DNA from: Herbidospora yilanensis
GTDB taxonomy: Bacteria > Actinomycetota > Actinomycetes > Streptosporangiales > Streptosporangiaceae
Direction: 5' to 3'
Length of the DNA stretch: 64,000 bases
NCBI RefSeq assembly: GCF_001570565.1
Contig: NZ_BBXE01000013.1
Location: 264,984-328,983 of the forward strand
The notes beneath the pieces were generated by a model. It did no database searches. It was not told the origin of the DNA and saw nothing but the letters and a program-made list of their open reading frames with translations. Of this stretch, positions 6,472-49,136 are shown piece by piece. Position numbers and translations under genes: made by a program. The number at the start of each line of letters is the position of its first letter. The stretch's first letter is position 1.

Positions 6472-7897
6472 GCTGGCCGAAGGCGATGTCCTGACCCGTC
6501 GCTATCTGCTCCAGGAGCGGATAGCGACGGGCGGCATGTCGGTCATCTGGAAGGCGTTCGACCAGTCTCTCCAGCGGACCGTCGCCATCAAGCTGCTCGA
6601 CTCGTCCCTCGACGGCGACAACCCCGGCCGGGAACTCATCCGCCGGGAGGCCAGGGCGACGGCCCGGCTGATCCACCCCGACGCCATCGAGGTCTACGAC
6701 TACGGCGAGACCGTCACCCCCCGGGGACGCCTCGCCGCCTACGTCGTCATGCGCCTCCTGGAGGGCAGGTCCCTGGCCGACCGCCTGGCCGAGGGCCCGC
6801 TCCCCTGGGAGGAGGCCGCGGCCACGGCCGCCCGCCTGGCCCTGGTGCTCGCCGCCGCCCACGAACGCGGCATCGTGCACCGCGACGTGACGCCGGAGAA
6901 CGTCCTCCTCACCCCGGAGGGCGCCAAGCTGCTCGACTTCGGCATCGCCGCGTTCGCCGGCGAGGCCGACGACGAGCTGGTCAAGGACTTCGGCACGCCG
7001 CCATACGTGGCCCCGGAACGCCTCAGGGAGTTGCCCGCCGCCCCCGCGGTCGACGTCTACTCCCTGGGCGTCCTCCTGTACGAGATGCTCAAGGGCCGCC
7101 CGCCCTATCCCGAGACGACCTGGGAGGGCATCGAACAGGCCCGCCGCGACGGCCCGCCCCCGGGCCCCGACGGCGTGCCCGGCCTCCCTTCCGAGATCGC
7201 CGCCCTCTGCCGCCGCTGTCTGTCGCCCGACCCGACGGAACGCCCGAGCGCGCGTGAGGTCGCCGCCGCCCTGATGCCCGGAGAGGCCGAACGCGAGCCC
7301 GGCTGGGTCAAGTGGGGAGCCGCGGTGGCCGGGGTGCTGGCGCTCGGCGTCCTGCTCGTCCAGCAGCCGGGCACCCCGGCCGGCCTGGCCGCCGACATCA
7401 GCCTGAGCGTGACCCCCACCAGCCAGGCCACCGCCCGCACCCCCGCCGACCGCAGCGTCCCGGTGCTGGACCCGGCCCCCGAGGCGGCCGAACCCAGGGC
7501 CACCGACGCGGGCTCACCCCCGATCACGGAGGACGAGCCGGAGCCGCCGCCGAAGAGCCCGCCGCCCCGGCCGACCCCGCGTCCCGGGTCGACGCTGGGC
7601 CCCATCCCGCTGGCCAGCCCCGCCCCCGGCGTCCCGACCGTGAAGGAGGCGGCGGCGGAGTTCGACCGTCTGGTGGCCGAGGGCGGCAAGGCGGGCCACA
7701 TCATCGGCTACGCGGCCGACGACCTGCGGCTGGAACTGCGCAACATGATCGCCAACGACGACGCCGGCGCGATCGGGAACCTGCGGACGAAACTCGACGA
7801 CCGCCTGAGGGAGGAGGTCCTCACCCCGGCCTTCAAGACCCGCCTGGAAGGGGCCCTCGACCGTTTGGCGGCGGCCTTCGCCGCGAAGGGCGCCTGA
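6458..7897 (+). CDS. membrane Ser/Thr protein kinase with Pro-rich linker and C-terminal extracytoplasmic domain
   Basis: Gly-loop IATGGMSVIW, VAIK, HRDVTPENVLL and DFG motifs; a TM segment WGAAVAGVLALGVLLV; GTG start overlapping the LacI stop by 14 nt. Confidence 0.85.
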   Translation: MNRPELAEGDVLTRRYLLQERIATGGMSVIWKAFDQSLQRTVAIKLLDSSLDGDNPGRELIRREARATARLIHPDAIEVYDYGETVTPRGRLAAYVVMRLLEGRSLADRLAEGPLPWEEAAATAARLALVLAAAHERGIVHRDVTPENVLLTPEGAKLLDFGIAAFAGEADDELVKDFGTPPYVAPERLRELPAAPAVDVYSLGVLLYEMLKGRPPYPETTWEGIEQARRDGPPPGPDGVPGLPSEIAALCRRCLSPDPTERPSAREVAAALMPGEAEREPGWVKWGAAVAGVLALGVLLVQQPGTPAGLAADISLSVTPTSQATARTPADRSVPVLDPAPEAAEPRATDAGSPPITEDEPEPPPKSPPPRPTPRPGSTLGPIPLASPAPGVPTVKEAAAEFDRLVAEGGKAGHIIGYAADDLRLELRNMIANDDAGAIGNLRTKLDDRLREEVLTPAFKTRLEGALDRLAAAFAAKGA

Positions 7898-33005: not shown

Positions 33006-33007
33006 GA

Positions 33008-33517
33008 CTACAGGCCCCCTTCGTAAGGCATGACCCAGAAGAACTCGCCTTCCGCGTCATATTGGAAGATCAGCGCGGCCCCGCCCGCGCGGAAGACGTC
33101 GACGCCGGTCTGGCGCACCTGGATGACCGAGGTCGAGCCGTCGACGGCGCGGATCTCGGCCTGACCGAAGTCGGTGGAGACCGACTGGGTTCTGATGACG
33201 CAGATCTGCCCGACGAAGTCGTGCCGTGAGGGCACCTTCTCGGGCGCGGGCGTGAGGCGGCGTACCAGGAACGCGGCCCCGAGGCCCAGGACGAGCGCGG
33301 CGGCCAGGACCACCCAGCCGAGCGCCGGAAACAGCACGGATCCGGCCAGCGCGGCGAACCACCCCGTGGCCACGAACCCGGAGACCTCGGCCGCGGGCAG
33401 ACCGTCGAGGTCGACCACGCCGAAGGCCACGAGCAGCCAGAACCCGATGACGACGATCAGCGCGAAGCTGAACAGGACAGCCGGGAAGCCTAATGCGGCG
33501 TCCACGAAATCGCGCAA
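33008..33517 (-). CDS. NfeD-like membrane protein (YuaF-type, TM + C-terminal OB-fold)
   Basis: Three or four TM helices followed by a beta-rich C-terminal domain; a 2-nt gap to the flotillin start with a GAAGGGGG RBS. Confidence 0.65.
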   Translation of the reverse strand: MRDFVDAALGFPAVLFSFALIVVIGFWLLVAFGVVDLDGLPAAEVSGFVATGWFAALAGSVLFPALGWVVLAAALVLGLGAAFLVRRLTPAPEKVPSRHDFVGQICVIRTQSVSTDFGQAEIRAVDGSTSVIQVRQTGVDVFRAGGAALIFQYDAEGEFFWVMPYEGGL

Positions 33518-35789: not shown

Positions 35790-38102
35790 ATGTATGGGGG
35801 GAACCTCCCCCCAATACTGCTGGACGTGAGCGATTCGGCCGACCTTCCGCAGTTCCCCGGTGTCCTGGACACCGTGCGCGCCTGGCTCTCCTCCGCCGAT
35901 CCCCGGCCCCTCGTGCTGACCGGGCCGCCCGGCAGCGGCACCGCGGCGTTGCTGGCCCGGCTCGGCGAGCACCTCGCCGGAGAGCCGTCCGTCGTCGTCC
36001 GCGACGACCTCTGCGACGACCCCGCCCGGTTGCCGGCGCGGCCGGGTCTCCGCGTGATCACCCGGGCCCGCCGCCGGCACGACGGGCTGCTCTCCCTTCC
36101 GGTGCGGCCCCTGCGCGGCCACGGCCCCGACAGCGAGGTGGTCCGGTACTTCCTGCGGTGCCTGCGCCGCCACGACCCGACCGCCGTCGTCGCGGCCGAG
36201 GACCTGTCCCAGGTGAGCGAGGTCTGCGCGGCCTCGTTCGGGCTGTCCGCCGACGTCGACCTGCTGGCCGGGCTGGTCGCCCGCTACGGCCTGGCGGCCG
36301 TGCGCGACGCGGTCGCCGAGGACCACCAGCGCACCCGGCTGGCCGGGCTGCTCGGCGACGCCCACGGCCACCACGACCTGAGCGGCGACGAGATGGTCGT
36401 GCTGGCCTCGATCCTGGCGCTGCCGGGCGGGGCGAGCGAGAACGTGCTGCGCCACTCGTTGCCGCGGTGCGACATCGGCGGGCTGACCGCCTCCCTGGTC
36501 GAGCGCGGCCTGGTGGTGCGCGCCGAGCCCCGGCGCTGGCACCTGCGGGTGAGCGGCTTCCCGGCGGCGAGCTGGTGCGCCGCGCGGCCGGAGGTGTCGC
36601 TCGACGCGATCCGCCAGGCGCAGGCCGACTACCTGTCGGGCCAGGTCGCGCGGCTGGCCGCGGGTGTCTTCACCGACCACCAGCGGGCCGTGTTCGCCGA
36701 GTTCGACCACGAGCGGCGCAACCTCAACGCCGCCGTCGCCGAACTCGTCGGCGGCGGCCGGTACGCCCAGGCCGTCGCCCTCATGCGGGACGCCCTGCCG
36801 TTGCTGGCCCGCACCTCCGGCGTGGCCGGGCTGCTGCCGCACCTGCTGCCGGTCATCCGCAGGTACGCGCCCGCGACCCCGGCCGAACGGCACACGTTGT
36901 CGCGGCTGGCCGTGCGGGTGTTCGCGGCCGGAGGGGAACAGGAGGCCGCCGCCGTCTGCTTCGACGCGCTGCCGGAGACCGACCCGGACGTGCCGCTGCT
37001 GGCGGCCCTCGTGCACGCCGTGCCCGACCCGGAGGAGCTGGCCGCCTGCGTGCGGACCGCCCGCGAACAGGGCGACGCGGTCCGGCTGGGCGAGTCGGTC
37101 GGCGAGTACGTCGCCTGCCTGGCCCGGCTGCGCCGGTTCGACCGCGCCGACGCCGAATGCCGTACCGCCCTGTTCGAGGCGATGTGCGGCGGGGACGACC
37201 ACGCCGCGGCCTCGTTGCTGCTCTGGCGCGCGGCCGCCGCCACCGCCCTGGCCACCGGCGACAGCCGCCTGTACGTCGAACGGGCCCTCGCCAAGCTGCT
37301 GCCCCTCGGCCCGGCGGCGGCCATGTCGGCCATCGCCGCCGTGGTCGACGGACGCCACCAGCGCGACCTCCAGCAGAGCGCCGTCGACCTGGCGATGGTC
37401 GCCGGGTCGCTCGGCCGGGCCTGCGCGGCCGAGACGGAGCGTCCGGTCGAGGTCGGCGGGCTGCTGACCGGGCGCATCGGCGTCCGGCCGCTGCGCCGCT
37501 GGGTGACGGCGGGAGAGGGGGTCGACCTCGCCGACCTGCTGTGCGAGATCCTCCAGCGCAGGTTCGGCGACGACCCGGCCGCCCCCCGGCCGGTGCCGCA
37601 GGGCTCCGTCGACCCGAGGGTGCTGCGGGAACGGTCGCGGCTGACCGCCCGCGAGTCGGAGGTCGCCGGGCTGGTCGCGACCGGCCTGACGAACAAGCAG
37701 ATCGCCCGCCGGTTGCGCATCTCCGAGTGGACGGTGGTCAACCACCTGCGCCAGGTGATGCGCAAGCTCGACTGCGCCTCCCGGGTCCAGGTCGCCCGCT
37801 GGGTGCACGATCTGGAGGCCGGGTCAGCCCGTCTCGAACCGGCCGACGGCGACGGTGTGCAGCAGGGCCGGGTCGACCAGCGAGGCGAAGTCGGCCGTGA
37901 CGAGGTCGGCGTCCAGCGCGGCCAGCAGCCCGAGGTGCCGGTCGACGTACTCCGGGGGGTCGATGCCGCACGAGAGGAGTTCCGCGTACTGCTGGGTCAC
38001 GGCCAGGGTGGACTCGTACAGTTCGGGCGCGGCGGCGAGCATGCGGTCCCTGACCCGCGTGACCAGCCCCCCGTCGACGTCACCCTCGCGGAGCTGCGTT
38101 AA
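35790..38102 (+). CDS. LAL-type (large ATP-binding LuxR) transcriptional regulator
   Basis: N-terminal P-loop LVLTGPPGSGTAALLARL; C-terminal LuxR HTH ESEVAGLVATGLTNKQIARRLRISEWTVVNHLRQVMRKL. The first in-frame stop falls ~280 nt inside the convergent M16 gene. Confidence 0.75.
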   Translation: MYGGNLPPILLDVSDSADLPQFPGVLDTVRAWLSSADPRPLVLTGPPGSGTAALLARLGEHLAGEPSVVVRDDLCDDPARLPARPGLRVITRARRRHDGLLSLPVRPLRGHGPDSEVVRYFLRCLRRHDPTAVVAAEDLSQVSEVCAASFGLSADVDLLAGLVARYGLAAVRDAVAEDHQRTRLAGLLGDAHGHHDLSGDEMVVLASILALPGGASENVLRHSLPRCDIGGLTASLVERGLVVRAEPRRWHLRVSGFPAASWCAARPEVSLDAIRQAQADYLSGQVARLAAGVFTDHQRAVFAEFDHERRNLNAAVAELVGGGRYAQAVALMRDALPLLARTSGVAGLLPHLLPVIRRYAPATPAERHTLSRLAVRVFAAGGEQEAAAVCFDALPETDPDVPLLAALVHAVPDPEELAACVRTAREQGDAVRLGESVGEYVACLARLRRFDRADAECRTALFEAMCGGDDHAAASLLLWRAAAATALATGDSRLYVERALAKLLPLGPAAAMSAIAAVVDGRHQRDLQQSAVDLAMVAGSLGRACAAETERPVEVGGLLTGRIGVRPLRRWVTAGEGVDLADLLCEILQRRFGDDPAAPRPVPQGSVDPRVLRERSRLTARESEVAGLVATGLTNKQIARRLRISEWTVVNHLRQVMRKLDCASRVQVARWVHDLEAGSARLEPADGDGVQQGRVDQRGEVGRDEVGVQRGQQPEVPVDVLRGVDAAREEFRVLLGHGQGGLVQFGRGGEHAVPDPRDQPPVDVTLAELR

Positions 38103-39089
38103 CACCCGGGTGATCGCCTCGGCGGCGGCGGGGGCGCGGCCGGCGTCCACGAAGCCGCTGACGATGAACACCCCGCCGGAGAAGAACGGCATGAACCGGG
38201 CCTCGATGCCGTAGCTGGCCCCCATCCGGCCGCGCAGTTCGCGGTTGAGCAGGGAGTCGGGGCCGCCGCCGAGCAGTTCGCCCGCGACCCGGGCCGACGG
38301 CCAGCGCGGGTCGAGCCGGTCGACCGCGAAGCCGCCCAGCACGAGCCGGGTCTGGGGGCCGCCCCGGCCCGGCCGGTGCGTGCGGCCGGGCGTGTCCGCC
38401 GGGAGCGGCGGGACGTCGGCGAGGGGCAGGTCGTCCCCGGCGGGCACGCCGGCGAACGCCTTCGCGGCGGCGTCGGCGGCGCCGGTCCCGGCCAGGTCGC
38501 CGGCCACGACCAGGGTCATCCGGGCGGCGCCGGGCACGACGGCGGCGACGTCGTCCAGGGTCAGCGTGCGCCAGACCGCCTCGGTGCCGCCGAGCGGGCG
38601 GCCGTACCGGGAGCCGGGGGCCAGCACCGACTCGTGCACGAGTTTGTTGCCGAGCGCGATCGGGTCGTCGGACTCCATGGCCCGTTCGGCCACGACCTGG
38701 CGGCGCAGCGCCTCGAACGAGCGGGCCGTCGGCGTGAAGGGGTGCACCATCGCGGCCATCGCCTCGAACAACCGGGGCAGTTCGGCGGCCGGGCAGTCGC
38801 CCATGACGATCGGGCCCCGGTGCCCGCACCGCGTGGTGACCATCCCGCCCGCCAGGGCGAGGTCGCCGACGGTCCCGTCGCGGTGGTGCGGCGCGTCGGC
38901 GTTGAGCAGCGCCGCGTACGCCGCCACCACCCCCTCGGTCTCCGGGCGTTCGACCGCCGTGGTCGGCAGCAGGATCGACAGGGCGGCGGTGGCGACGTGC
39001 CGTCCGGGCATGTCGGCGAGCAGCACCCGCAGGCCGTTGTCCAGCGTGAACGTCTCCGGCTGCGGGAAACGCCAGGTCACAGGATCCAT
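37824..39089 (-). CDS. M16-family peptidase, non-catalytic-type subunit (no HxxEH)
   Basis: Start at MDPVTWRFPQPETFTLDNGLRVLL; M16 fold without the zinc motif; overlaps the start of the upstream M16 partner. Confidence 0.75.
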   Translation of the reverse strand: MDPVTWRFPQPETFTLDNGLRVLLADMPGRHVATAALSILLPTTAVERPETEGVVAAYAALLNADAPHHRDGTVGDLALAGGMVTTRCGHRGPIVMGDCPAAELPRLFEAMAAMVHPFTPTARSFEALRRQVVAERAMESDDPIALGNKLVHESVLAPGSRYGRPLGGTEAVWRTLTLDDVAAVVPGAARMTLVVAGDLAGTGAADAAAKAFAGVPAGDDLPLADVPPLPADTPGRTHRPGRGGPQTRLVLGGFAVDRLDPRWPSARVAGELLGGGPDSLLNRELRGRMGASYGIEARFMPFFSGGVFIVSGFVDAGRAPAAAEAITRVLTQLREGDVDGGLVTRVRDRMLAAAPELYESTLAVTQQYAELLSCGIDPPEYVDRHLGLLAALDADLVTADFASLVDPALLHTVAVGRFETG

Positions 39090-40258
39090 GAGGGTTCTCC
39101 GGCGGCGTGGAAGGCGACGACCGACGGCCGTGCCATCGGCCCGGCGGCCAGCGCGGCCACCTCGGCGTTGGTGACCCGGCGGACGGCGTCGAGCCGCGTG
39201 GTGACCCCGGCGGCGTCGCCCGACCAGGCGTGTTCCCGGCACAACTCCTCGGCGAGTGTGCGGGCGGCCCCGAGGGCCCCGAGTTGTTCCCTGATGCGCA
39301 GGGCCTTGGCGGCGGCCAGCACGTCGGGCGGCAGCCCGTCGCGGGCCACGGCGGCCAGACGGGCGGCGACGTCCCGTTCGAGCGCGGCCAGGTCGGCCGA
39401 GGCCGGGACCGACAGCTTGACCAGGCCGATCGACGGGCCGAGCGCGCACCGGGCGTGCTGGCCGAGCGCGCCGAGCAGGCCGGGCCGCGAGCCGAGCACC
39501 GACCAGGGGGCGCTGGCCAGCGCCGCCATCACCACCTCGGCGGCGGCCGATCCCGGCGGCAGGGCGAAGGTCAGCCGCACCATGGACGTCGGCTGGCCCT
39601 CCTCGACGTCCTCCCGCGCGCCCAGCGGCTCCCCGGTGACCGGCGGCGGGGCCGGCCGGCCCGAGGGAAACCCGGCCAGGTGGTTCCCGGCGATCTCCAC
39701 GGCCGCGTCGGGGTCGGCCGCGCCGACGACCGACACGACCAGCCGGTCGGCGCCGTAGTGGGCCTCCACGAACGTGGCCACGTCGTCGGGCGTCACGGCG
39801 GCGACCTCGGCGGGGTCGCCGACCGGCGGGCGGCCCGCCGGGTGGTCGCGCCCGAATAACAACCGCAGGCCGCGCCGCAGCCCCGACCCGAACCGGCCGG
39901 GTTCGTCGCGTTCGCGGATCTCCTCCAGCACGATCCGGCGGTGTCCCGCCAGCACGTCCCCGGTCACGCCGCGCCGGCCGCGCCGCACCCGGTCGCCGGC
40001 CTCGGCCAGCATCGCCGGGAGGGTGACCGCCGGGCCGGTCGCCACGTAGTTCGTGGACTCGTAGCCGGTGGTGGCCTGCGCCGAGCCGTTCTCGGACATG
40101 ACGTGCTCGACCACGTGAGCCAGGCCCGACCTGCCGATGGGGTCGTGCAGGGAGCCCGCGCCGTGCCAGGCGTTGACCGCGACGAAGCCGAGCCCCGGGT
40201 CGGGCCGCACGACCAGGGTCGCGCCGCCCGGCAGCCGGCGGGTGACCAGCCCGTCCAT
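39077..40258 (-). CDS. M16-family zinc peptidase, catalytic subunit (HVVEH)
   Basis: Start at MDGLVTRRLPGGATLVV; HxxEH motif in GLAHVVEHVMSENGS. Confidence 0.8.
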   Translation of the reverse strand: MDGLVTRRLPGGATLVVRPDPGLGFVAVNAWHGAGSLHDPIGRSGLAHVVEHVMSENGSAQATTGYESTNYVATGPAVTLPAMLAEAGDRVRRGRRGVTGDVLAGHRRIVLEEIRERDEPGRFGSGLRRGLRLLFGRDHPAGRPPVGDPAEVAAVTPDDVATFVEAHYGADRLVVSVVGAADPDAAVEIAGNHLAGFPSGRPAPPPVTGEPLGAREDVEEGQPTSMVRLTFALPPGSAAAEVVMAALASAPWSVLGSRPGLLGALGQHARCALGPSIGLVKLSVPASADLAALERDVAARLAAVARDGLPPDVLAAAKALRIREQLGALGAARTLAEELCREHAWSGDAAGVTTRLDAVRRVTNAEVAALAAGPMARPSVVAFHAAGEPSWIL

Positions 40259-41994
40259 CACGCGCCCACGGGGGCGGGGGCCGCCTGGGCGTGCACGAAC
40301 GCCTGGTAGGCGGGGCTGGCCGACGACAACGTGCCGTGGTCGCCCACGGCGGTGACGCGGCCGGCGTCGACGACCACGATCGTGCCGGCCGCGGCGACCG
40401 TCGACAGGCGGTGGGTGACCATCACCACGGCCCGGTCGCGGCCCAGGTCGGCGAGCAGGTCGGTGAGCCGCCGTTCGTTGACGCCGTCCATGTGCGCGGT
40501 CGGTTCGTCGAGCAGCAGGATCTCGGCGTCGGTCAGCAGGGCGCGGGCGATGGACAGGCGCTGCTCCTCGCCGCCGGACATCTGGTCGCCCGCGCCGAGC
40601 ACCGCGTCCAGCCCGGCGGGCAGGGCGCGCACGGCCTGCTCCAGGCCGACGTCGCGCAGCGCGGTCCACAACTCGTCGTCGGACGGGGCGTCCGACCGGC
40701 CCAGCGTCAGGTTCTCGCGCACGGTCATGGACAGGATCGCCGACCCCTGCTCGACCAGGGCGACCCGGCGGCGGGCCTCGGCTGTCGGCCACTCGTGGAG
40801 GGGCGCGCCGAGGAGCTCCACCCGCCCGGCGTCGGTCTCGACGAAGCCCTCCACCACGTTGAGCAGAGTCGACTTGCCCGCTCCCGACGGTCCGACGATC
40901 GCCAGCACCCCGGTGCGCGGCACCTCAAGAGACACCCCGTCGAGCACCGGCTTGCCGCCGAGCGACACCACGACGTCCGAGAGCCGCAGCGCCGGCGCGC
41001 CCGGCGTCACCTCGGGCGCGCGGGCCGCCCCGGCCGGTTCGGTCTCCGCGCCGAGCACCTCGTCGACCCGCCGCGCGGCGGCCTTGCCGACCGCGATCCT
41101 GCCCGCGCCCTGCGCCAGCGCCATCAGCGGGTTGACGAGCTGGAACAGGTACATCAGGAAGGCGATGAACGCCGTGGTCTCCAGCGCGCCCGAGGCCAGG
41201 CGCACCCCGCCCACGGCGAGCACGCCGATGATGGCGACCTGCTGGCCCAGGCCCATCAGCGGGCTGATCGCCGCCTGGGCCCGCGCCGAGCGCACCGCCG
41301 ACGCCGCCGCCTCGCCGATCTCGTTCTCCAGCGGGGCGATGGCCCGGTCCTCCGCCCGGTACGCCTTGACCGTCGTCACCATCGTGAACACCGACTGCGC
41401 GGCCTGGGCCAGCCGGCCGAGCGCGGCCTGCTGCGCCTCGGCCGCCCGGCGCATGCCCGCCAGGAAGGCCCTGATGGCGATCGCGGCCACGACGAACGTG
41501 CCGACCGTCACGGCCAGCATCACCCAGTCGAGGATGCCCATCACGATCAGGTACGCCGTCACCATCACCGCCGAGACCGGCATGACCGTGACGCCCGTGT
41601 CGGTGATCGCGCGCATCTGGGCGGCGTCGGGCCCCATCCGGGAGACCACCTCGCCCACGCCGATCCGCCGGATCACCGGCACCCGCAGGCGCACCGCCCG
41701 GCGCACCACGGCCAGGCGCACGTCCTCGATGGCCCGTTCCCCGGCCGCGCTCAGCAGGTAGGACGACCAGCCTCCGGCGAACGCCCCGGCCAGCACGATC
41801 ACGACGAGCTGCGCCACCGGCCAGACGACGTCCCCGCCCGTCCCGCCGATCACGCCCAGGATGCGGGCGATCAGCAGCGGCGTGACGATCCCGGCCGCGG
41901 CCGAGACCAGGGCGAGCACCACCGAGGCGGCCAGCCGGCCCCGCCGCGCCCTAACCGACCGGGACAACAACCCGAGTGTCGGCGACTCCGCCAT
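40258..41994 (-). CDS. ABC exporter, fused permease + ATP-binding domains
   Basis: Six TM helices N-terminal; Walker A GPSGAGKST, signature MSGGEEQRLSIARAL, Walker B ILLLDEPT. Confidence 0.85.
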   Translation of the reverse strand: MAESPTLGLLSRSVRARRGRLAASVVLALVSAAAGIVTPLLIARILGVIGGTGGDVVWPVAQLVVIVLAGAFAGGWSSYLLSAAGERAIEDVRLAVVRRAVRLRVPVIRRIGVGEVVSRMGPDAAQMRAITDTGVTVMPVSAVMVTAYLIVMGILDWVMLAVTVGTFVVAAIAIRAFLAGMRRAAEAQQAALGRLAQAAQSVFTMVTTVKAYRAEDRAIAPLENEIGEAAASAVRSARAQAAISPLMGLGQQVAIIGVLAVGGVRLASGALETTAFIAFLMYLFQLVNPLMALAQGAGRIAVGKAAARRVDEVLGAETEPAGAARAPEVTPGAPALRLSDVVVSLGGKPVLDGVSLEVPRTGVLAIVGPSGAGKSTLLNVVEGFVETDAGRVELLGAPLHEWPTAEARRRVALVEQGSAILSMTVRENLTLGRSDAPSDDELWTALRDVGLEQAVRALPAGLDAVLGAGDQMSGGEEQRLSIARALLTDAEILLLDEPTAHMDGVNERRLTDLLADLGRDRAVVMVTHRLSTVAAAGTIVVVDAGRVTAVGDHGTLSSASPAYQAFVHAQAAPAPVGA

Positions 41995-42970
41995 CGGACC
42001 CTCCCCTCGCGCGCACGGCGGCGAAGATCTCGCGCAGGTCGCGCATGCACTCGTCCTGGCCGTACATGTTGTTGACCGAGCTGGGGTTGACGACCACCTC
42101 GTCCACCCCCAGGTCGTGGTACTTGGCGATCTCGTCGGCGATGTGGTCGGGGTCGCCGTAGACGTACACCCCGGCCTGGACGAGTTCCCTGGCGCCCGAC
42201 ACCGGGTCGGAGGCGTCCACGTCGAGGCCCGCCCTGCGCAGCATGTCGGTGTAGTGGGGGGCCGACAGGTGGCTGATGCTGCCGTACTGGGCCAGCAGGT
42301 TGGCCGACCGGCCGGGCCGGGCGACGGCCGCGTGCACGACCGACACGATGCGCGGCGGCGGCTGCACCCCGGCCGCGCCCTGCGCGACGGCCGGCATGAC
42401 GACGTCCTCGATGTACTTGAGCGGCGTCAGCCACGTCATCGCGAGGTCGCCGCAGCGGCCGGTGACCCGGGCCATGGCGGGCCGCAGCACCCCCGCGCCG
42501 ATCTCCACCGGCGGGCAGTCCATCGGCGGCAGCGCGGCGTCGACGGTGAAGTGCTCTCCCTTGTGCCGCACGTGCTCGTTGCGGGCCAGCCGGCGGGCGA
42601 CGTCGATGAACTCGCCGACGATCGCGGCCGGTCTGGCGTACGGCTCGCCGCGCAACTGCGTCACGTACTGCGGGTAGGCGGCGCCGTAGCCGATCGCCAC
42701 CGGTTGTCCCATGAGCCGGGCCAGCGACCGGGCCTGCAACGCCGCGTCGTACGGGTGGCGCAGCACGATCAGCCCGACGGCCATGCCGATCGAGATCCGG
42801 CAGCCCGTCCCGGCCAGGTAGGCGACCGCCGGGTGGGACTCGATCCGCAACGACTGCCCGAGCCACAACCGCGCCGCGCCGATCTCCTCGGTCAGCCGGC
42901 CGTACGGGACGATCGTGTCCGGGTCGGTCGGCTGGTGCGGGAACATGAACGACACCTTGCGCGAGCTCAC
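41951..42970 (-). CDS. LLM-class (luciferase-like) flavin/F420-dependent oxidoreductase
   Basis: TIM-barrel LLM family signature (FPHQPTDPDTIVPYGRLTEEIGAARLWLGQSLRIESH...); GTG start overlapping the upstream stop (GTGA). Confidence 0.75.
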   Translation of the reverse strand: MSSRKVSFMFPHQPTDPDTIVPYGRLTEEIGAARLWLGQSLRIESHPAVAYLAGTGCRISIGMAVGLIVLRHPYDAALQARSLARLMGQPVAIGYGAAYPQYVTQLRGEPYARPAAIVGEFIDVARRLARNEHVRHKGEHFTVDAALPPMDCPPVEIGAGVLRPAMARVTGRCGDLAMTWLTPLKYIEDVVMPAVAQGAAGVQPPPRIVSVVHAAVARPGRSANLLAQYGSISHLSAPHYTDMLRRAGLDVDASDPVSGARELVQAGVYVYGDPDHIADEIAKYHDLGVDEVVVNPSSVNNMYGQDECMRDLREIFAAVRARGGSDGGVADTRVVVPVG

Positions 42971-43938
42971 GACGCCACCTCCACCAGCGGGCTGTCGGCG
43001 TTGCGGTGCGGCGCGAGCGGGTCGGCGTTCGCCTCGGCGAGCGCCTCGGCGACGGCCTCGGCCAGGTCGCGGCCGTCGAACAGGTGCCGCGCCACGCCGT
43101 CGGCGACCGCCATCGTGCGGTGCTGGCCCAGGCTCATGCGGTCCCATCCGGGCCGGGTGTCGCGCGGCTCCCAGCCGTACGCGACGCCGTCGGCGATCGG
43201 GCTGGTCATCACCGAGTGGGCCGGGTTCAGGCCGGGCAGGTTCCGCACCGCCGCGACGAGGCCGCCCACGGCGTGCCACGACTCCTCGGTCAGGTAGACG
43301 ACGATCGCGTCCCGCCTCGGATACTGGTCGGCCTTCGCCAGCACCTTCGCCCGGTAGGTCGCCCCGGCGCCCTCCAGCCGACTCAGCACCGCGTGCCACA
43401 CGGCGGGCGCCATCGACGGCTCGTCGACGTGCAGGTAGATCCGCAGCATGTGGCCGCCGGCCCCGTGGCCGCCCGCCGAGCCGTTGACCAGGAAGAACCC
43501 GGGAGAGAGCGTCGGCCTGATCGCGGGCAGCTCCAGCGTGGTGCGGGTGCCGATCTCCGGCAGCGGCGTCGGGCTCTCGCCCCCGGGGATGCGCAGGCGC
43601 ACCCGGCCGACGTCGAAGAGCACGTGCCGGCCGAGCGGGCCGTCGATCATGGCCGACCGAACGACCGCCGGGGTGCGGCTGGTGCGGTGGGGGGTGGCCT
43701 CCCGCAGGAGGTCCTCGAAGTCGTAGTCGCGGCGCGGGTCCCACTCGCCGGTCCTGACGGCCGAGCCGCTGTGCCAGTGGCGGTAGAGCACCGGCCCGAG
43801 GTCCTGGCGCAACCGGGTGCGGTTGTCGCCCGTGACCGTCTCGTCCCCGACGGTCACCGACCGGGTGTCGGGGTCGAGGCGCAGGTCGCCGAGCAGGTGG
43901 TCGAGCCGGTCGAGGAGACCCTGGTGGGCGATGGTCAT
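42967..43938 (-). CDS. hypothetical ~320-aa protein, candidate HopA1-like phospho-Ser/Thr lyase partner of the kinase
   Basis: No motif I can name with certainty. Assignment is from tight coupling (2-nt gap, GGAGAG RBS) to the APH-like kinase, and from its size and context matching kinase + HopA1-like pairs in class V lanthipeptide and thioamitide clusters. Confidence 0.45.
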   Translation of the reverse strand: MTIAHQGLLDRLDHLLGDLRLDPDTRSVTVGDETVTGDNRTRLRQDLGPVLYRHWHSGSAVRTGEWDPRRDYDFEDLLREATPHRTSRTPAVVRSAMIDGPLGRHVLFDVGRVRLRIPGGESPTPLPEIGTRTTLELPAIRPTLSPGFFLVNGSAGGHGAGGHMLRIYLHVDEPSMAPAVWHAVLSRLEGAGATYRAKVLAKADQYPRRDAIVVYLTEESWHAVGGLVAAVRNLPGLNPAHSVMTSPIADGVAYGWEPRDTRPGWDRMSLGQHRTMAVADGVARHLFDGRDLAEAVAEALAEANADPLAPHRNADSPLVEVAS

Positions 43939-43940
43939 GA

Positions 43941-45046
43941 TCAGTTCTCTCCAAGGCCGATGGTGGGGGCGAACTTCTCCGGCGTCGTGAGCGCGTTGCG
44001 GCCGATCCCGGCCATGCCGCGCTCCACCGCGCTGAGCCGCGCGCCGTGCACGGCGCCCGCGAGCAGCCGGTCGAAGAAGTGCCACCCGATGTAGCCGGTG
44101 GCCCGCACGGCCAGGCCCTCGTCCGGCTCGGCGACCTCCCGGTAGCCCTGCCAGAAGCGGCGGATGTGCTCGCGCACGGCCGACAGGTGCCGGTCGCCCG
44201 CGGCGACGATCGCCTCGTGGGCGGCGCCCGGCGACAGGCCCGTGTCCAGGTCGAGCTCGCGGAACATGCGCGCCACCGCGTGGTGCACGAACTCGCCCGC
44301 GAAGGCCCCGACGTCCCGGGCCGGGTCGTGGTGCCGGAACTCCTCCCAGTCGATGACGTACAGGTCGTCGCCGGAGCACAGGAACTGGTCCAGGCGCAGG
44401 TCGCCGTGGGTGACGGTGGCGGGGGCGGCGGCCGAGACCCGGTGCAGCGCGGCGAGCGCCTCGACCAGCACCTTGTCGTGCTGGAGCAGCGCCCACGCCT
44501 CGACCTCGCCGCCGCTGCAGTTGGCGTAGTCCTCGGGGCTCAGCGCGTAGAAGGCGTTGGCCCGGCGGTCGTCGGCCGACTCGGGCAGGTCCTCGGCGCG
44601 CGGCAGCGAGTGCACCTCGCCCAGCACCCGGCCCATCCGGTGGGCCAGCTCGACGTCGAGCTCCCCGGCCGCCAGCAGGTCGGAGGCGGCGCGGGAGTCC
44701 GGCACGTACTCGAAGACCAGCAGGCATTCGCCGGCGTCGGCGCCGTGGAAGGCCGGCACCCGCAGCTCGGCCGTCGCACGGCCGGCGATCAGCCGCTGGA
44801 AGGCCAGCACCCGGTCCATCCGGGCGGCGGCGTGCGCGCGGTCCCCCCGCAGGCGCTTGACGAACAGGTCGGGTCCCTCGGCGGTCGGCACCAGCCAGTT
44901 GTCGTTGCGGCCGAGGAAGCCGCGCATGCCCTCCACGATGGGCGTGGCCCCGCTGAGCGAGGCGACCGCCTGGACGAACTCCTCCGGGCGCGACACCGGC
45001 CGGGCCGCGACCAGCCGGGTCGTCTGTGTTTCCTCTTTCACGTCCA
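43941..45046 (-). CDS. aminoglycoside-phosphotransferase (APH)-fold kinase, candidate RiPP Ser/Thr kinase
   Basis: HGDLRLDQFL catalytic loop and IDWEEF motif of the APH/choline-kinase fold; divergent from the precursor array. Confidence 0.8.
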
Positions 45047-45104
45047 TGCGCCGAAATCTATGGACGCGGAAAGGCCCCGCGACATCCCAGGAAAGCACCG
45101 GCAG

Positions 45105-45125
45105 CAGGCATATGGCAGATGCCTG
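45105..45125. promoter_or_regulatory. inverted repeat CAGGCAT-N7-ATGCCTG in the divergent promoter between the kinase operon and the precursor array
   Basis: 7-bp perfect arms; the spacer ATGGCAG recurs as a direct repeat at 45153-45159. Confidence 0.3.
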
Positions 45126-45246
45126 ACAGATCCTTGCCGGCCGGTGTTCCCGAATGGCAGTCGGCCGGTGACGCGGGCGCGCAAATCCTCGTCATTTCGC
45201 CAGGACCGGCGGCCTAGTTTCCTTTGTTCCGAAGGAAGGAGATCTC

Positions 45247-45387
45247 ATGTCCAGCGAACTCATCGCGGGATACGCGAACTACGCCAGCACCGAATCGGTC
45301 CTGAGCGAGAACACGACCGCCGAGTGGTGGCCGATCACGTCGTACACCGTCACGCTCTCCACGACGACCACCTCGATCTGGATCTGA
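45247..45387 (+). CDS. candidate RiPP precursor peptide A (46 aa)
   Basis: MSSELIAGYANYASTESVLSENTTAEWWPITSYTVTLSTTTTSIWI; RBS GAAGGAG 7 nt upstream; not in the ORF track. Confidence 0.7.
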   Translation: MSSELIAGYANYASTESVLSENTTAEWWPITSYTVTLSTTTTSIWI

Positions 45388-45397
45388 GGGGCGCGCC

Positions 45398-45538
45398 GTG
45401 TCCGAGCTGATCGCGGGTTACGCCAATTACGCCAGCACCGAGGCGGTGCTCCAGGAACGTTCCGAGGCCGGCCGCTGGATCGAGTGGACCCTCTGGTTCA
45501 CCGTCACCATCTCCGTCACCCCCACCTCCTCCCTCTGA
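45398..45538 (+). CDS. candidate RiPP precursor peptide B (46 aa, GTG start)
   Basis: VSELIAGYANYASTEAVLQERSEAGRWIEWTLWFTVTISVTPTSSL; GAGGGG upstream. Confidence 0.65.
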   Translation: MSELIAGYANYASTEAVLQERSEAGRWIEWTLWFTVTISVTPTSSL

Positions 45539-45559
45539 ACCTGCTGAGAAAGGAAGACC

Positions 45560-45709
45560 ATGTCCGAGCTGATCGCCGGTTACGCCAACTACGCCTCCAC
45601 CGAGGCCATCCTCCAGGAGCGGCAGCTCGCCGCCCGTGAGCCCGAGACCGGCCTGTTCACGCTCACCATCACGATCTCGCTGACCATCACGGTCACGATC
45701 AGCCTCTGA
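45560..45709 (+). CDS. candidate RiPP precursor peptide C (49 aa)
   Basis: MSELIAGYANYASTEAILQERQLAAREPETGLFTLTITISLTITVTISL; RBS AAAGGAAG. Confidence 0.7.
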   Translation: MSELIAGYANYASTEAILQERQLAAREPETGLFTLTITISLTITVTISL

Positions 45710-45722
45710 CCAGGAGGTCCCG

Positions 45723-45872
45723 ATGCACGAGCTCGTCGCCGGATACGCGAACTATGCCTCGGCCGAGGCGATCCTGCGGGAACAGGCCGCCGGGCGTGTT
45801 CTCGAAGCGGGTCTCTTCTTCTCGGTGACCTTCAGCTTCACCCACAGCAATTCCATCTCCTTCTCCATCTGA
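45723..45872 (+). CDS. candidate RiPP precursor peptide D (49 aa)
   Basis: MHELVAGYANYASAEAILREQAAGRVLEAGLFFSVTFSFTHSNSISFSI; RBS CAGGAGG. Confidence 0.7.
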   Translation: MHELVAGYANYASAEAILREQAAGRVLEAGLFFSVTFSFTHSNSISFSI

Positions 45873-45890
45873 CCGAAAGGAAACGGGCGA

Positions 45891-46046
45891 ATGAACGACC
45901 TCATCGCCGGATACGCCAACTACGCCTCCACCGAGGCCATCCTGCACGAGCGGCAGATCGCGAGCCGCGACGCCGAATCGATCAGCGCGACCGTGACGGT
46001 CACCTGGACCCTCACCGTCTCCTGGTCCTACTCCTGGTCCTACTAG
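45891..46046 (+). CDS. candidate RiPP precursor peptide E (51 aa)
   Basis: MNDLIAGYANYASTEAILHERQIASRDAESISATVTVTWTLTVSWSYSWSY; RBS AAAGGAAACGGG; the stop overlaps the stop of the convergent LAL regulator. Confidence 0.7.
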   Translation: MNDLIAGYANYASTEAILHERQIASRDAESISATVTVTWTLTVSWSYSWSY

Positions 46047-48979
46047 GAATCGCGCAGCACCGCGGCGTGGTCCCCCAGCGCCCCCCGGTTGGAAAGCCCG
46101 GTCTTGGCCAGCAGGCTGGCCACGTGCTTCTCCACCGTCCGCGGTGAGATGAAAAGTCGTCGGCCGATCTCGACGTTGCCGAGCCGTTCGGCGAGCAACA
46201 TCAGAACCTGGTGCTCGCGCACGGTCACGCCGAGGTTGCGCAGTTCGCCGGGCACCCCCTCCCGCCCGGGCCGACGGTACGACACCGCCGCCCCCGCCTG
46301 GCGCAGCAACGTGCGGCAGGCCGCCGTCACCGCCGTCACGCCCGCCTCGTGGAAGTGGTCCTCGGCCGCCCGCAACCACACCACCGGCTCGCCCCATCCG
46401 TCGGCCAGCGCGGCCTCCGCGACCAGCCGCGCCCCCAGGTGCGCCGCCTGCGGGAACGGCTCCCCGGCCGCCCGCGCCTCCGCCATCGTCCGCCCGGCCG
46501 CCGCGTGCTCGCCCCGCCCGCCCAGCAACACCGCGCGGGCGAGCAGCAGGAAGTGCCGGTTCCACCGCAGTTCGGCGGCCGGCTGGGCGTGCACGGCCGC
46601 CCAGTCGTCGAGGGTGAGCTCGCCGGCGAGCGCGCCCAGCAGCACGGCCAGGCCGTAGCGGCCCGTCATGTAGTAGAGCGTGGGATGTTCGTCCTCCCAC
46701 GCGCGTGCCCTGGCGAGCAACTCCGCCGCCTGGTCGCGGTCCTCCTCCAGCAGGGCGCAGAACGCCTGGCAGAGGCCGTACACGACCGGGGTGTGCAGGC
46801 TCTGCTCACCGCCCCACCTGCGGAAATCGGCCAGGGCGTGCTCCATGGCCTCGCGCCGCCCCTGGTGGGCGGCCAGTGTCGCCTGCGCCATCAGCAGATA
46901 CTGGGTGTAGGCCGTGTGCCCCAGCCGGATCGTGGTCTCGACGCACGCGGCGGCGGTCTCGGCGGCGCTCTTGTACTCCGCCCGCAGCACCCGCGTCATC
47001 ACCAGGGACGCCTCCGCGCTGTGCACCAGGCTGATCGCGCCCGCCTGGGTGGCCGCCCGCAGCACCTCCTCAAGCGGATCGCTCTCCCCGGTACGCATGT
47101 TGTGGTTGGCCGCCAGCCGGTACATCGCCCGCAACCGCCACAGGCTCAGCCCGTGCACCTCGGCGATGGCCTTCATCCGGGTCAGGCACCGGTCGGGCTC
47201 GCCGAACCCGTGCACCCTGGTCAGCATGGCCAGCCGCTCCCACGCCTGGCAGGCCACCTCGGGCAGCGGCAGCCGCTCGGCCACCTCGGCGGCGCGTCGC
47301 GACAGCGCCTCGGCGGCGGCCATCTCGGCCGGCCCGGCTTCGTTGACGCCGTGGTCGGGGAACAACAACTGCGCCTCGATCACGTCGATCGCGGCGCCGC
47401 GCGCCTCGTCGGGCAGGCTCTCCAGCGACCGCCGCACGGCCGCCACGTGGGCGCGCCCGGCGGGCAACTCGCCGATCTCGGCGGCCACCCACGCCAGCTT
47501 GGTGCGCAGGTCGACCTCCTGCCACAGCCCCATCGACAGGTCGTCGGACGCGCACTCCCTGGCCAGCTCCAGCGCCCGGTCGGCCCGGCCGCCCTCGGTC
47601 AGCGCGTGCAGCAACCGCTGGAGCGTGTGGGCCCGCGCCGGGGCGGGGCCGCCCTCCTGGAGCCGGTCGGCCCGTTCGAGCAGGGTCGCCGCGACGTCGG
47701 CGGCGCCGCCGTTCAGGTAACGTTCGCCCGCCTCGGCCAGCAACGCCCCGGCCGTGTGGACCTCACCGGCCGTCAGCCGCAGGCTCGCGGCGATCTGGAG
47801 CCACTCGTCCGGGAGCCCCGGATACAGGCGTTCGACCGACCGGGCCGCCTGGCGGGCCAGCCGGGCCCGCTCCGCCGGGATCAGCTCCGCCGACAACGCC
47901 TCGGCGGTCAGGGCGTGGCGGAAGGCGTACCATTCCCCGGCCGGTTCGTCGGGCACGACGAGCCGCGCCGTGGTGGCCGCCCGCAGGATCGCCTCGACCC
48001 CCCGGTCGTCGAGGCCGGAGACGTCCTGGATGACCGGCACCGGGAAGCGGTTCCCGAACACCGCCCCGGTCAGCAGCAGCTCGTGCGCCGCCGGCACGAG
48101 CGTCGCCATGCGCGCCGCGATCCCGCGCGCCGCCGAGTTCGGCCCCCGCGCGCCCGGGTCGTCTTTCAGGGCGTCGACGAACTCCTCGACCAAATACGGC
48201 ACGCCGTCCGTCTCGGCCACGAGGCGGTCCATCACTCCGTCCGGCAGCACGTCCGGCAACTCGTCCGGCCGTGCCAGGCAGGCCGCGACGAGCCGGCGGG
48301 TCTCGTCGGGCGACAGCGGCGGCAACTCGACGACCTCCGCCACCTGGCGGCGGGCGCAGTCGTCGGCCACGGTCCGCGCCGGGCCGGCGTGCCCGCGCAG
48401 GTTCACCAGGAGCAACGCCGGCACGTCGGCGAGGTTGTCGGCCAGGTATTCGACCACGCCCAGCGTGCCCGCGTCGGCGTCGTGCAGGTCCTCCAGCACC
48501 AGCACGCCGCCGCGCGACTCCCGTCCGAGAACGGTCAGGAGCCGCAACACGGCCTCGGCGAGGATGACCGCCGACTCCAGCCGCCGCGCGCCCCCCTCCT
48601 CCCGCCACTCGGGCACCAGCGTCGTCAACGCAGGGAGATAGGGCCGCAACAGCGGATCGTCGGGCGGCCTGCGCGACCGGGCGAGCGAGAACAACGCCTC
48701 GCTCAGCGGCTTGAACGGGATGTCCGCGCTGACCGCGCTACCCCGCCCGCGCAGGCTCACCAGCCCCAGGTCACCGGCCCGCCGGAGCACCTCCGACGTC
48801 AACCGGGACTTCCCGATGCCGGGATCGCCGACCAGGAAGACGGTCTTCCCGCGACCGTCCCCGACCTGCTCCAGACACCTGTCGAACAGCGCTTTCTCGG
48901 GTTCCCGCCCGATCAGGACCGGCGACCTGGACACGTTACTTGTGCGACACCGAGACGGGGTTGACGGGGTCGCCCTCAA
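46043..48979 (-). CDS. LAL-type (large ATP-binding LuxR) transcriptional regulator
   Basis: N-terminal P-loop VFLVGDPGIGKSRLTSEVL; C-terminal LuxR HTH REHQVLMLLAERLGNVEIGRRLFISPRTVEKHVASLLAKTG. Confidence 0.85.
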   Translation of the reverse strand: MRATPSTPSRCRTSNVSRSPVLIGREPEKALFDRCLEQVGDGRGKTVFLVGDPGIGKSRLTSEVLRRAGDLGLVSLRGRGSAVSADIPFKPLSEALFSLARSRRPPDDPLLRPYLPALTTLVPEWREEGGARRLESAVILAEAVLRLLTVLGRESRGGVLVLEDLHDADAGTLGVVEYLADNLADVPALLLVNLRGHAGPARTVADDCARRQVAEVVELPPLSPDETRRLVAACLARPDELPDVLPDGVMDRLVAETDGVPYLVEEFVDALKDDPGARGPNSAARGIAARMATLVPAAHELLLTGAVFGNRFPVPVIQDVSGLDDRGVEAILRAATTARLVVPDEPAGEWYAFRHALTAEALSAELIPAERARLARQAARSVERLYPGLPDEWLQIAASLRLTAGEVHTAGALLAEAGERYLNGGAADVAATLLERADRLQEGGPAPARAHTLQRLLHALTEGGRADRALELARECASDDLSMGLWQEVDLRTKLAWVAAEIGELPAGRAHVAAVRRSLESLPDEARGAAIDVIEAQLLFPDHGVNEAGPAEMAAAEALSRRAAEVAERLPLPEVACQAWERLAMLTRVHGFGEPDRCLTRMKAIAEVHGLSLWRLRAMYRLAANHNMRTGESDPLEEVLRAATQAGAISLVHSAEASLVMTRVLRAEYKSAAETAAACVETTIRLGHTAYTQYLLMAQATLAAHQGRREAMEHALADFRRWGGEQSLHTPVVYGLCQAFCALLEEDRDQAAELLARARAWEDEHPTLYYMTGRYGLAVLLGALAGELTLDDWAAVHAQPAAELRWNRHFLLLARAVLLGGRGEHAAAGRTMAEARAAGEPFPQAAHLGARLVAEAALADGWGEPVVWLRAAEDHFHEAGVTAVTAACRTLLRQAGAAVSYRRPGREGVPGELRNLGVTVREHQVLMLLAERLGNVEIGRRLFISPRTVEKHVASLLAKTGLSNRGALGDHAAVLRDS

Positions 48980-49136
48980 GTCCGAGCGCGATGGTCGCGC
49001 CCGCGGCGGTGTCGGGCGACTTAAGGATCAGGGTCGCGCCCGCGGTCAGCCCCGCCAGCACGAGCGCCCGGGTGAGCGGCCTGATGTTGGCCAGCCGCGC
49101 GCCGGCCGCGAGCACCGGATTCTGCTCAGTGTTCAT
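48936..49136 (-). CDS. small (66 aa) hydrophobic protein translationally coupled to the LanM-like gene
   Basis: MNTEQNPVLAAGARLANIRPLTRALVLAGLTAGATLILKSPDTAAGATIALGLEGDPVNPVSVSHK; GC3-rich; the start overlaps the lanM-like stop (ATGA); no Cys. Confidence 0.55.
   Translation of the reverse strand: MNTEQNPVLAAGARLANIRPLTRALVLAGLTAGATLILKSPDTAAGATIALGLEGDPVNPVSVSHK

Follow-up and report, generated by a model that had tools for sequence, protein, structure and literature searches.

Class Va lanthipeptides (lexapeptide, cacaoidin, pristinin A3, triantimycins and rosins) are products of actinomycetes, whose clusters combine an LxmK-type kinase and an LxmY/HopA1 lyase with a reductase of the luciferase-like monooxygenase (LLM) class, M16B peptidase(s), ABC transporter(s), a LuxR regulator and multiple precursors (PMC9486802, PMC11186320, PMC12291118). 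The kinase and lyase CaoK/CaoY perform eight successive dehydrations in vitro (PMC9486802), and LxmJ, RosJ and Cao12 are F420H2-dependent LLMs that make D-Ala; cacaoidin also contains D-2-aminobutyrate (D-Abu) (PMC8498797, PMC8068269, PMC12291118). Here we describe a locus within 64,000 nt of Herbidospora yilanensis DNA (contig NZ_BBXE01000013.1, positions 264,984 to 328,983 of the forward strand; this whole stretch is referred to below as the window), in which five tandem small open reading frames (ORFs) lie beside a cluster that shares all of these components.

The window peptides show the L-x3-Y-x2-Y...E leader spacing of the class Va precursors, but score below the cutoff of the LxmA leader model. 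Unlike those precursors, they have a periodic (S/T-X)n core in place of an irregular one, and the window cluster contains none of the Cys residues, LanX cyclase, LanD decarboxylase and N-methyltransferase of that class. Without Cys and a cyclase, thioether rings cannot form, and the lanthionine, methyllanthionine or aminovinylcysteine ring that defines class Va is impossible for these peptides. Compared with the ros (RosK, Y, D, X, P1, P2 (M16B), J, T; PMC12291118) and stn (PMC11186320) clusters, the window cluster amounts to the same toolkit minus X, D and Cys. Membership among the class V lanthipeptides thus fails on the defining features tested (Cys, LanX and LanD), whereas the dehydration and reduction machinery is clearly of that family. 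It is very likely that the five ORFs encode precursors of peptides that are ribosomally synthesized and then modified post-translationally (RiPPs), acted upon by the kinase and lyase (LanK/LanY), and we consider it probable that a Cys-free offshoot of the class V pathway would dehydrate and then reduce them.

The precursor array

45099..45246, no strand: intergenic region from which the kinase operon and the precursor array diverge, with presumed promoters (148 nt, GC down to ~0.63)
45247..45387, + strand: precursor A1 (ORF1), 46 aa, ATG start; ORF with Shine-Dalgarno site GGAAGGAG and third-codon-position GC (GC3) of 0.91; sequence MSSELIAGYANYASTESVLSENTTAEWWPITSYTVTLSTTTTSIWI
45398..45538, + strand: precursor A2 (ORF2), 46 aa, GTG start; ORF, Shine-Dalgarno site, GC3; sequence MSELIAGYANYASTEAVLQERSEAGRWIEWTLWFTVTISVTPTSSL
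45560..45709, + strand: precursor A3 (ORF3), 49 aa; ORF, Shine-Dalgarno site, GC3; C-terminal part ...REPETGLFTLTITISLTITVTISL
45723..45872, + strand: precursor A4 (ORF4), 49 aa; ORF, Shine-Dalgarno site, GC3; C-terminal part ...VLEAGLFFSVTFSFTHSNSISFSI
45891..46046, + strand: precursor A5 (ORF5), 51 aa; ORF, Shine-Dalgarno site, GC3; C-terminal part ...RDAESISATVTVTWTLTVSWSYSWSY

A first-pass annotation, made from the letters of the window, had proposed five unannotated ORFs here as Cys-free RiPP precursors with a common leader, strictly alternating cores and an APH-like kinase nearby. All five are present at the positions listed, separated by spacers of 10-21 nt; their translations match and none contains Cys. 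Each has, as proposed, its own purine-rich Shine-Dalgarno sequence 5-10 nt upstream (from ORF1 to ORF5: GGAAGGAG, GAGGGG, AAAGGAAG, CAGGAGG and AAAGGAAA) and a biased third codon position (in-frame GC3 of 0.82-0.96). The leader blocks are 73-84% identical as DNA. Among the five leaders, synonymous codon differences (58) outnumber non-synonymous ones (22); of 93 base differences, 63 affect codon position 3, and Ser is encoded now by AGC and now by TCC/TCG. The synonymous excess, the position-3 bias and the Ser codon switching reveal protein-level selection on these frames: the precursor ORFs are real and under selection.

The description of the ORFs as unannotated applied to the ORF track available to the first-pass annotation but not to public Herbidospora genomes, whose annotations list the same or nearly the same peptides under the name "hypothetical protein". 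A 93%-identical orthologue of A1 is annotated in Herbidospora sp. NBRC 101105, A2 is identical to P0001 from Herbidospora yilanensis, and A4 and A5 are identical to P0004 and P0003, respectively. In Herbidospora solisilvae (locus L007) there is an orthologous array of six copies, in which the ORF5 orthologue encodes an identical protein with two synonymous changes, the counterparts of ORF1, ORF3 and ORF4 each have an unchanged core, and that of A3 lies at 6569-6718. Comparison of the two arrays (L007 6089-7058 versus window 45247-46046) shows six versus five copies and a swapped order of the A3 and A4 orthologues. Leaders have also been exchanged between copies: the A4 leader of the window, MHELVAGYANYASAEAILRE, is replaced by MSELIAGYANYASTEAILQE on an identical core in L007. 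The differences in copy number, order and leader between the two species suggest recombination or gene conversion inside the array.

The conserved leader of the first-pass annotation is borne out by a five-way alignment with 16 invariant columns, all but two of them within the first 25 residues (M..L.AGYANYAS.E..L.E...A). Its further remark that the leader was not recognised as any named precursor family needs some refinement: 41 of 44 family members match the NCBIfam model NF038146 ("LxmA leader"), all of them below its cutoff of 25 bits and the best at 23.5 bits, the score of A4, which ranks first of the five window peptides. In class V type-A leaders, Leu occupies position -24 and Tyr positions -20 and -17, and an acidic residue precedes a hydrophobic one (PMC9486802); the family leader fits this description, with the same L-x3-Y-x2-Y ... 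E-hydrophobic spacing. The sub-threshold matches and the type-A spacing together suggest that this leader is a diverged offshoot of the class V leaders. Acidic residues occur at -21/-22 from the C-terminus, and many leaders end in P-D/E or A-E, resembling the Ala-3/Pro-2/Glu-1 leader end of type A (PMC9486802). The leader showed no match to NHLP or Nif11 in Pfam or NCBIfam.

Periodicity of the core

The periodicity was assessed on 65 unique precursors, with positions counted from the C-terminus. In this phase, positions -2, -4 ... -16 are 71-94% Ser/Thr, whereas the odd positions -1, -3 ... -17 contain 0-25% Ser/Thr and are otherwise occupied by V, I, W, L, F or Y. The register positions add up to 244 Ser and 260 Thr, i.e., 52% Thr. 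Aromatic residues account for 45, 49, 37 and 31% at positions -1, -3, -5 and -7, and drop to 2-22% further towards the N-terminus. Charged residues represent at most about 2% across the last 15 positions, 48 of the 65 precursors end in [S/T]-X-stop, and all but three of the 65 are free of Cys.

Alternation was evaluated against 2000 composition-preserving shuffles per peptide. ORF3, ORF4 and ORF5 have 8, 8 and 11 consecutive alternate Ser/Thr residues, numbers reached in 0 of 2000 shuffles (p<0.0005); ORF2 and ORF1 have 6 each (p=0.0045 and p=0.066, respectively). For the first three, the "strict" alternation claimed by the first-pass annotation is accurate; for ORF1 and ORF2 it is a slight overstatement, since both slip out of register (STTTTS and TPTSSL). 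Across the family, 72% of the precursors exceed their shuffles at p<0.01. Ser and Thr swap freely at equivalent positions between orthologues (e.g., TVTLST versus TVSLST). An association of Ser with aromatic and of Thr with beta-branched neighbours is real but modest and is confounded by sequence relatedness.

The modification operon

43941..45098, - strand: LanK, LxmK-type Ser/Thr kinase of the APH fold; NCBIfam NF038156 equivalog, 363.9 bits versus a cutoff of 315
42967..43938, - strand: LanY, HopA1-family phosphoSer/Thr lyase; PF17914, 6.6e-41, whole model covered
41951..42970, - strand: LLM-class reductase, LanJC-like, probably F420H2-dependent; PF00296, 1e-32
40258..41994, - strand: ABC exporter with fused transmembrane and nucleotide-binding domains and no C39 peptidase domain; PF00664, PF00005
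39077..40261, - strand: M16B peptidase, active subunit (HVVEH); PF05193 and weak PF00675, HxxEH at residue 49
37824..39089, - strand: M16B peptidase, non-catalytic partner; PF05193, no HxxEH motif

A combination of a GC3 frame plot with Pfam and NCBIfam scans defined a six-gene minus-strand operon that diverges from the precursor array and in which every gene junction abuts or overlaps. The APH-like kinase noted earlier is a genuine LxmK-type RiPP kinase: in addition to exceeding the equivalog cutoff, LanK matches the LxmK crystal structure 9DK1_A (from the LxmK-LxmY complex 9DK1-3) over nearly its full length with E=1.1e-54. In LxmK, Arg49 and Lys66 bind ATP, Asp221 is catalytic, and Gln226 and Asp241 bind Mg (PMC12291118); all five residues are conserved in LanK, as R64, K81, D233, Q238 and D250, respectively. 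LanY, whose gene lies 2 nt from that of LanK, likewise matches the LxmY lyase 9DK1_B over nearly its full length (E=9.9e-41). The LLM gene is translationally coupled to lanY, its start overlapping the lanY stop (GTGA). All of its top NCBIfam matches are F420 subfamilies, the best being TIGR03564 (F420 MSMEG_4879 family), to which LxmJ and Cao12 have been assigned (PMC8068269), and its best matches in the PDB are F420 Mer enzymes. Family and context thus point to a probable F420 dependence and to the dehydrated precursors as the likely substrate of this enzyme. The ABC exporter is conserved in most loci.

The window cluster encodes no LanX (a second APH-like gene), no LanD flavoprotein decarboxylase, no methyltransferase and no radical S-adenosylmethionine (radical-SAM) gene, and no paralogue of LxmK occurs in the 64-kb window. 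LanX and LanD are also missing from the called genes of seven further loci (L010, L011, L013, L014, L015, L016 and L017), and LanC was not seen in these clusters. The kinase, lyase and LLM neighbours, together with the conservation of the frames across several genera described below, support the original interpretation of the ORFs as RiPP precursors; the adjoining LxmY/HopA1 lyase and F420-type LLM would match the -18 and -18+2 Da chemistry that had been predicted for them.

The gene content also bears on a simpler account, in which the array would encode unmodified, small amphipathic beta-strand proteins, or would consist of non-coding repeats that are open by chance. The raw alternation of Ser/Thr with hydrophobic residues does give amphipathic strands, and Pfam yields no match for any of the five peptides, even at E<=10. 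The probability of this account is nonetheless close to nil, given the codon-level purifying selection, Shine-Dalgarno sites and high GC3, the relationship of the leader to LxmA, the invariant linkage to a kinase, a lyase and a reductase across two orders, and the lack of an RNA family match in the array region, where an Rfam scan returned a chance-level miRNA match only.

Distribution and conservation of the family

The profile of the five peptides retrieved 51 homologues of 45-61 aa and one 26-aa fragment from Herbidospora, Streptosporangium, Sphaerimonospora, Rhizohabitans, Streptomyces, Embleya, Flexivirga and metagenomes. Of these 51 homologues, 48 are Cys-free, and where named they are nearly always designated "hypothetical protein". 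The back-translated leader pattern matches nine species-representative genomes. An exhaustive hidden Markov model search of 1.84 billion representative proteins gave only 24 matches at E<=0.001, indicating that the family is real but rare.

The check proposed in the first-pass annotation, namely whether the frames persist in orthologous loci, had a clear outcome: they are kept in several genera. In every locus with visible flanks, 2-6 tandem precursors are accompanied by a kinase, a lyase and an LLM. This A(n)-K-Y-LLM unit spans Streptosporangiales, Streptomyces/Embleya, Micromonospora and Flexivirga, usually together with the ABC exporter, the M16 pair and a LuxR regulator; the minimal set is found in Streptomyces sp. 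HPF1205, which has only A(3)-K-Y-LLM and LuxR. Of the cluster's enzymes, the LLM shows the highest conservation, with 76-82% identity across genera, compared to 55-72% for the kinase and 61-74% for the lyase.

LLM homologues with 66-97% identity correspond to clusters of the precursor family. In the tier at 53-62%, the two loci examined (Streptomyces sp. NBC_01190 and Micromonospora sp. DT228) represent a sister subfamily, with clearly divergent leaders (ADLMAGYVAY...: ADLMAGYVAYTNAPDIL, ADLMGGYVAYASPLAI) and cores that are again Cys-free and alternating (SISVTVSVTYSWTATY, SISLSLSVSYSVSVSWSISWSL); it is therefore the pattern itself that is conserved. A LanJ-type role for the clade is supported by one of the homologues at ~47% identity, which is located in a class I lanthipeptide cluster with LanB/LanC. 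In Streptomyces sp. NBC_01190, a 663-aa radical-SAM protein with no equivalent in the window cluster is encoded directly beside two precursors (L016 4210-6201, - strand), and could add a modification such as C-methylation or epimerisation.

The host range is relevant to the possibility that the products are morphogenetic or surface-active peptides, i.e., SapB/SapT-like biosurfactants for aerial hyphae, whose hydrophobicity would serve interfacial assembly rather than channels. Nearly all hosts are sporulating filamentous actinomycetes, the uncharged hydrophobic cores and the multiple variants per locus, predicted to be co-expressed, would suit a material role, and no dedicated immunity gene is obvious in the window. 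A complete cluster is present, however, in Flexivirga, a non-mycelial member of the Micrococcales; Embleya has an extra ABC ATPase/permease pair of the kind typical of self-protection; and the rare and patchy distribution (24 representatives) is unlike that of developmental genes. We regard such a role as unlikely.

Several members depart from the common design. Two Cys residues each occur in two array members of Streptosporangium amethystogenes (L013 9506-9824) and in one of Flexivirga (P0028), with no cyclase encoded near them, and the metagenomic or sister-type peptides P0181 and P0184 end in ...SWSWSCG(P). Canonical class V lanthipeptides and the Cys-free design may be linked through these Cys-containing members, as intermediates. 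The first array gene of Rhizohabitans arisaemae (L002 1450-1566, + strand) has an intact leader and a truncated, non-alternating tail (MYGLIAGYASYASAEVILREQQVASRDDETRTGLLPSP), and is probably a decayed precursor copy. The 825-aa protein P0183 from the representative-protein search matches the precursor profile in six separate stretches; it is probably no relative but a repeat protein with alternating Ser/Thr.

The neighbouring LanM-like gene

An 833-aa LanM-like protein with DUF4135 (6e-86), a partial LANC_like domain and the WCGG and CHG motifs is encoded 3 kb from the array (49133-51634, - strand), flanked by a LAL regulator and an Hsp20 gene. It also stands beside the LAL gene in two Sphaerimonospora genomes (L005 and L008) and is absent in other genera. 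This conserved position and domain content raise the question of whether the array feeds the LanM-like enzyme to give products of the class II lanthipeptide type. With five cores devoid of Cys there would be no thioether to form, and LanM is missing from the Embleya, Streptomyces, Rhizohabitans, Streptosporangium and Flexivirga clusters, among them the Streptosporangium cluster with its two Cys-containing array members. Such a pairing is most improbable, and LanM as the modifying enzyme of the window peptides is effectively refuted by the Cys-free cores and its absence from most orthologous loci. No Cys-containing precursor lies next to the LanM-like gene, which may represent an accessory specific to its lineage, or else a class II synthetase that is orphaned or degenerate. 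A Cys-free ORF of ~66 aa (MNTEQNPVLAAGARLANIRPL..., 48936-49139, - strand) is found between the LanM-like gene and the LAL gene and overlaps the annotated TTG start of the latter.

Predicted pathway and product

In the pathway that we consider probable, the leader (ELIAGYANYASTEAIL...) would recruit the LanK/LanY pair, which by homology to CaoK/CaoY would iteratively phosphorylate Ser/Thr at every second core position and eliminate the phosphate to give dehydroalanine (Dha) or dehydrobutyrine (Dhb). The coupled F420-type LLM would hydrogenate Dha to D-Ala at Ser positions and Dhb, probably, to D-Abu at Thr positions. Cleavage by the M16B heterodimer, probably just behind the last acidic residue at a distance of ~17-22 residues from the C-terminus, would then free the product from its leader, for export by the ABC transporter. 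The computed masses of the putative cores after full reduction are 2196.250, 1810.055, 1963.285, 2167.162 and 2348.272 Da, with expected shifts of M-18.011n for the dehydrated and M-15.995n for the reduced forms, where n, the number of register Ser/Thr, is 9 for the A3 and 11 for the A5 core.

The products would be linear, uncharged and wholly hydrophobic 17-22-mers with alternating D (small) and L (V/I/L/F/W/Y) residues, and with aromatics at the last four L positions. Gramicidin A, a beta-helical cation channel, is a 15-mer of alternating L and D hydrophobic residues, with L-Trp at positions 9, 11, 13 and 15 (i.e., -7, -5, -3 and -1). These Trp positions coincide with the W/Y/F-rich -7/-5/-3/-1 positions of the family, and length and lack of charge are alike. 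Gramicidin A is, however, a nonribosomal peptide synthetase product with an N-formyl group, a C-terminal ethanolamine and D-Leu/Val, whereas the peptides of the family are ribosomal and predicted to contain D-Ala/D-Abu; the likeness concerns the product's mode of working and not family membership.

Other natural products share part of this design. Linaridins (cypemycin, salinipeptins) are linear, Dhb-rich, lanthionine-free RiPPs of actinomycetes, some of which contain D-residues. Their LinH/LinL-type modification enzymes and leader are unrelated and their cores are not known to be periodic; the window cluster uses LanK/LanY instead. In the D-amino-acid lanthipeptides bicereucin, carnolysin and lactocin S (LanM with LanJA/JB), the dehydratase is LanM, the reductase is a Zn/NADPH or flavin enzyme and the hosts are Firmicutes; D-residues are scattered and there is a true-lanthipeptide partner, as opposed to the every-second-position pattern seen here. 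One bicereucin peptide has no Cys and yet contains several D-residues. The proteusins (polytheonamides and aeronamide) have an end-product architecture analogous to that predicted here, in which alternating D/L residues form a hydrophobic beta-helix that conducts monovalent cations (PMC9060474). They differ in their radical-SAM epimerase, which acts on any residue, their NHLP-type leader, 49-residue cores and extensive C- and N-methylation; in the window peptides the predicted D-residues are encoded as Ser/Thr, to be produced by dehydration and reduction, in cores of 17-22 residues. Given the design shared with gramicidin A and the polytheonamides, the predicted products most likely insert into membranes, possibly as beta-helical channels.

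The most specific form of this proposal is a ribosomal gramicidin analogue, in which every register Ser/Thr would become D-Ala or D-Abu and the peptide would fold into a beta-helix, with the C-terminal Trp/Tyr residues as an interfacial anchor, to act as a cation channel. We put it forward tentatively, as it is more doubtful than the underlying modification scheme. Several observations weigh against the proposed pathway and product. LxmJ failed to reduce Dhb in the S28T mutant of LxmA (PMC8068269), and with half of the register positions being Thr, full D/L alternation calls for an activity so far unproven for LanJC enzymes. For every NCBIfam F420 subfamily, the LLM falls short of the curated cutoff (100.6 versus 234 bits for its best match). 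ORF1 and ORF2 contain register slips and Pro, which would break a regular beta-helix, and a free, charged N-terminus is predicted where gramicidin has its formyl cap. In polar solvent, fragments of aeronamide that had been epimerised lack structure (PMC9060474); a beta-helix therefore does not follow from D/L alternation by itself.

The extent of reduction, above all of Dhb, which we infer from the enzyme family, is also the point on which the chief rival differs. In this rival the same enzymes would perform partial or no reduction: Ser-derived Dha would be converted to D-Ala and Thr-derived Dhb would persist, resulting in linear, rigid, Dhb-rich dehydropeptides reminiscent of linaridins. The LxmJ result and the 52% Thr content of the register favour this outcome, as does RosJ, which reduces only two Dha out of nine dehydrations (PMC12291118). 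On the other hand, the D-Abu of cacaoidin is attributed to the LanJC homologue Cao12 (PMC8068269, PMC9486802), the LLM is invariant among the clusters as well as their most conserved enzyme, and the free interchange of Ser and Thr between orthologues suggests equivalent fates for both residues. A partly reduced or unreduced product is rated as rather improbable, and reduction at both residue types remains the reading that we prefer.

Novelty and implications

We found no description of a Cys-free alternating precursor family in open-access full texts and bioRxiv, although a report in a subscription journal is possible. Published mining of class V clusters required Cys in the C-terminal region (PMC9486802) or a K+Y+X+D bait (PMC12291118); both designs would exclude the present clusters, which may explain the absence of the family from the literature. 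The enzymes are known; what is new is the substrate logic and the predicted product class. In an actinomycete family that is rare yet widely spread across the phylogeny, class V dehydration and reduction machinery appears to have been put to a new use, on peptides that are unable to become lanthipeptides. The periodic S/T-X core provides a sharp chemical prediction, namely a shift of -18n and then of +2n Da, and the presence of D-Ala and D-Abu. If true, this would constitute a genetically encoded route to alternating D/L membrane-active peptides, of interest for the discovery of ionophore antibiotics and for engineering of the D-pattern by codon choice. Were the gramicidin-like form to be correct, it would be a third independent route to this architecture, after nonribosomal synthesis for gramicidin and epimerisation by a radical-SAM enzyme for the polytheonamides. 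Iterative reduction of Dhb would then be added to LanJC chemistry and, with 2-6 natural variants per locus, the system would offer a simple and programmable means of writing D/L patterns.

Regulators and other features of the window

46043..48979, - strand: LAL-type regulator (AAA_16 and LuxR helix-turn-helix), convergent with the array; PF13191, PF00196
35790..38102, + strand: LuxR-family regulator, ~770 aa, at the far end of the operon; PF00196

The LAL gene adjoins the array in Sphaerimonospora as well. At its junction with the array in the window, the sequence CTAG (46043-46046) combines the A5 stop codon (TAG, + strand) with that of the convergent regulator. There is consequently no space for a terminator, and transcription of the array would run antisense into the regulator gene. 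A scan for terminators found two terminator-like matches, both inside flanking genes and at chance level, and a consensus scan of the divergent intergenic region found no sigma-70-like site, the consensus being uninformative for actinomycete promoters. Across 45000-46200 of the window (the array and its upstream spacer) GC decreases to 0.62-0.66, compared to 0.72-0.81 in the flanking genes, a dip plausibly due to the Thr/Ser/Ile/Trp/Tyr-rich composition of the peptides; nothing seen in the window indicates a foreign origin.

Large LuxR proteins homologous to the one encoded at the operon's far end also border the cluster in Rhizohabitans, Streptosporangium, Streptomyces HPF1205 and Flexivirga. 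In the window, the LuxR ORF extends 279 nt beyond the GerE domain into the 3' end of the convergent M16B gene (37824-38102), whereas the LuxR and M16B genes of Rhizohabitans (L014) do not overlap; the window arrangement may be a genuine long convergent overlap, or reflect a missed stop or frameshift.

Elsewhere in the window, a 1573-aa protein (26278-30999, - strand) contains DUF3686 ("ATPase involved in DNA repair", 3e-204), DUF7902 and an AAA domain, and is followed by two co-oriented ORFs of 669 and 169 aa (30996-33517, - strand) without a Pfam match. Together, the three genes may form an uncharacterised multi-gene system unrelated to the RiPP cluster.

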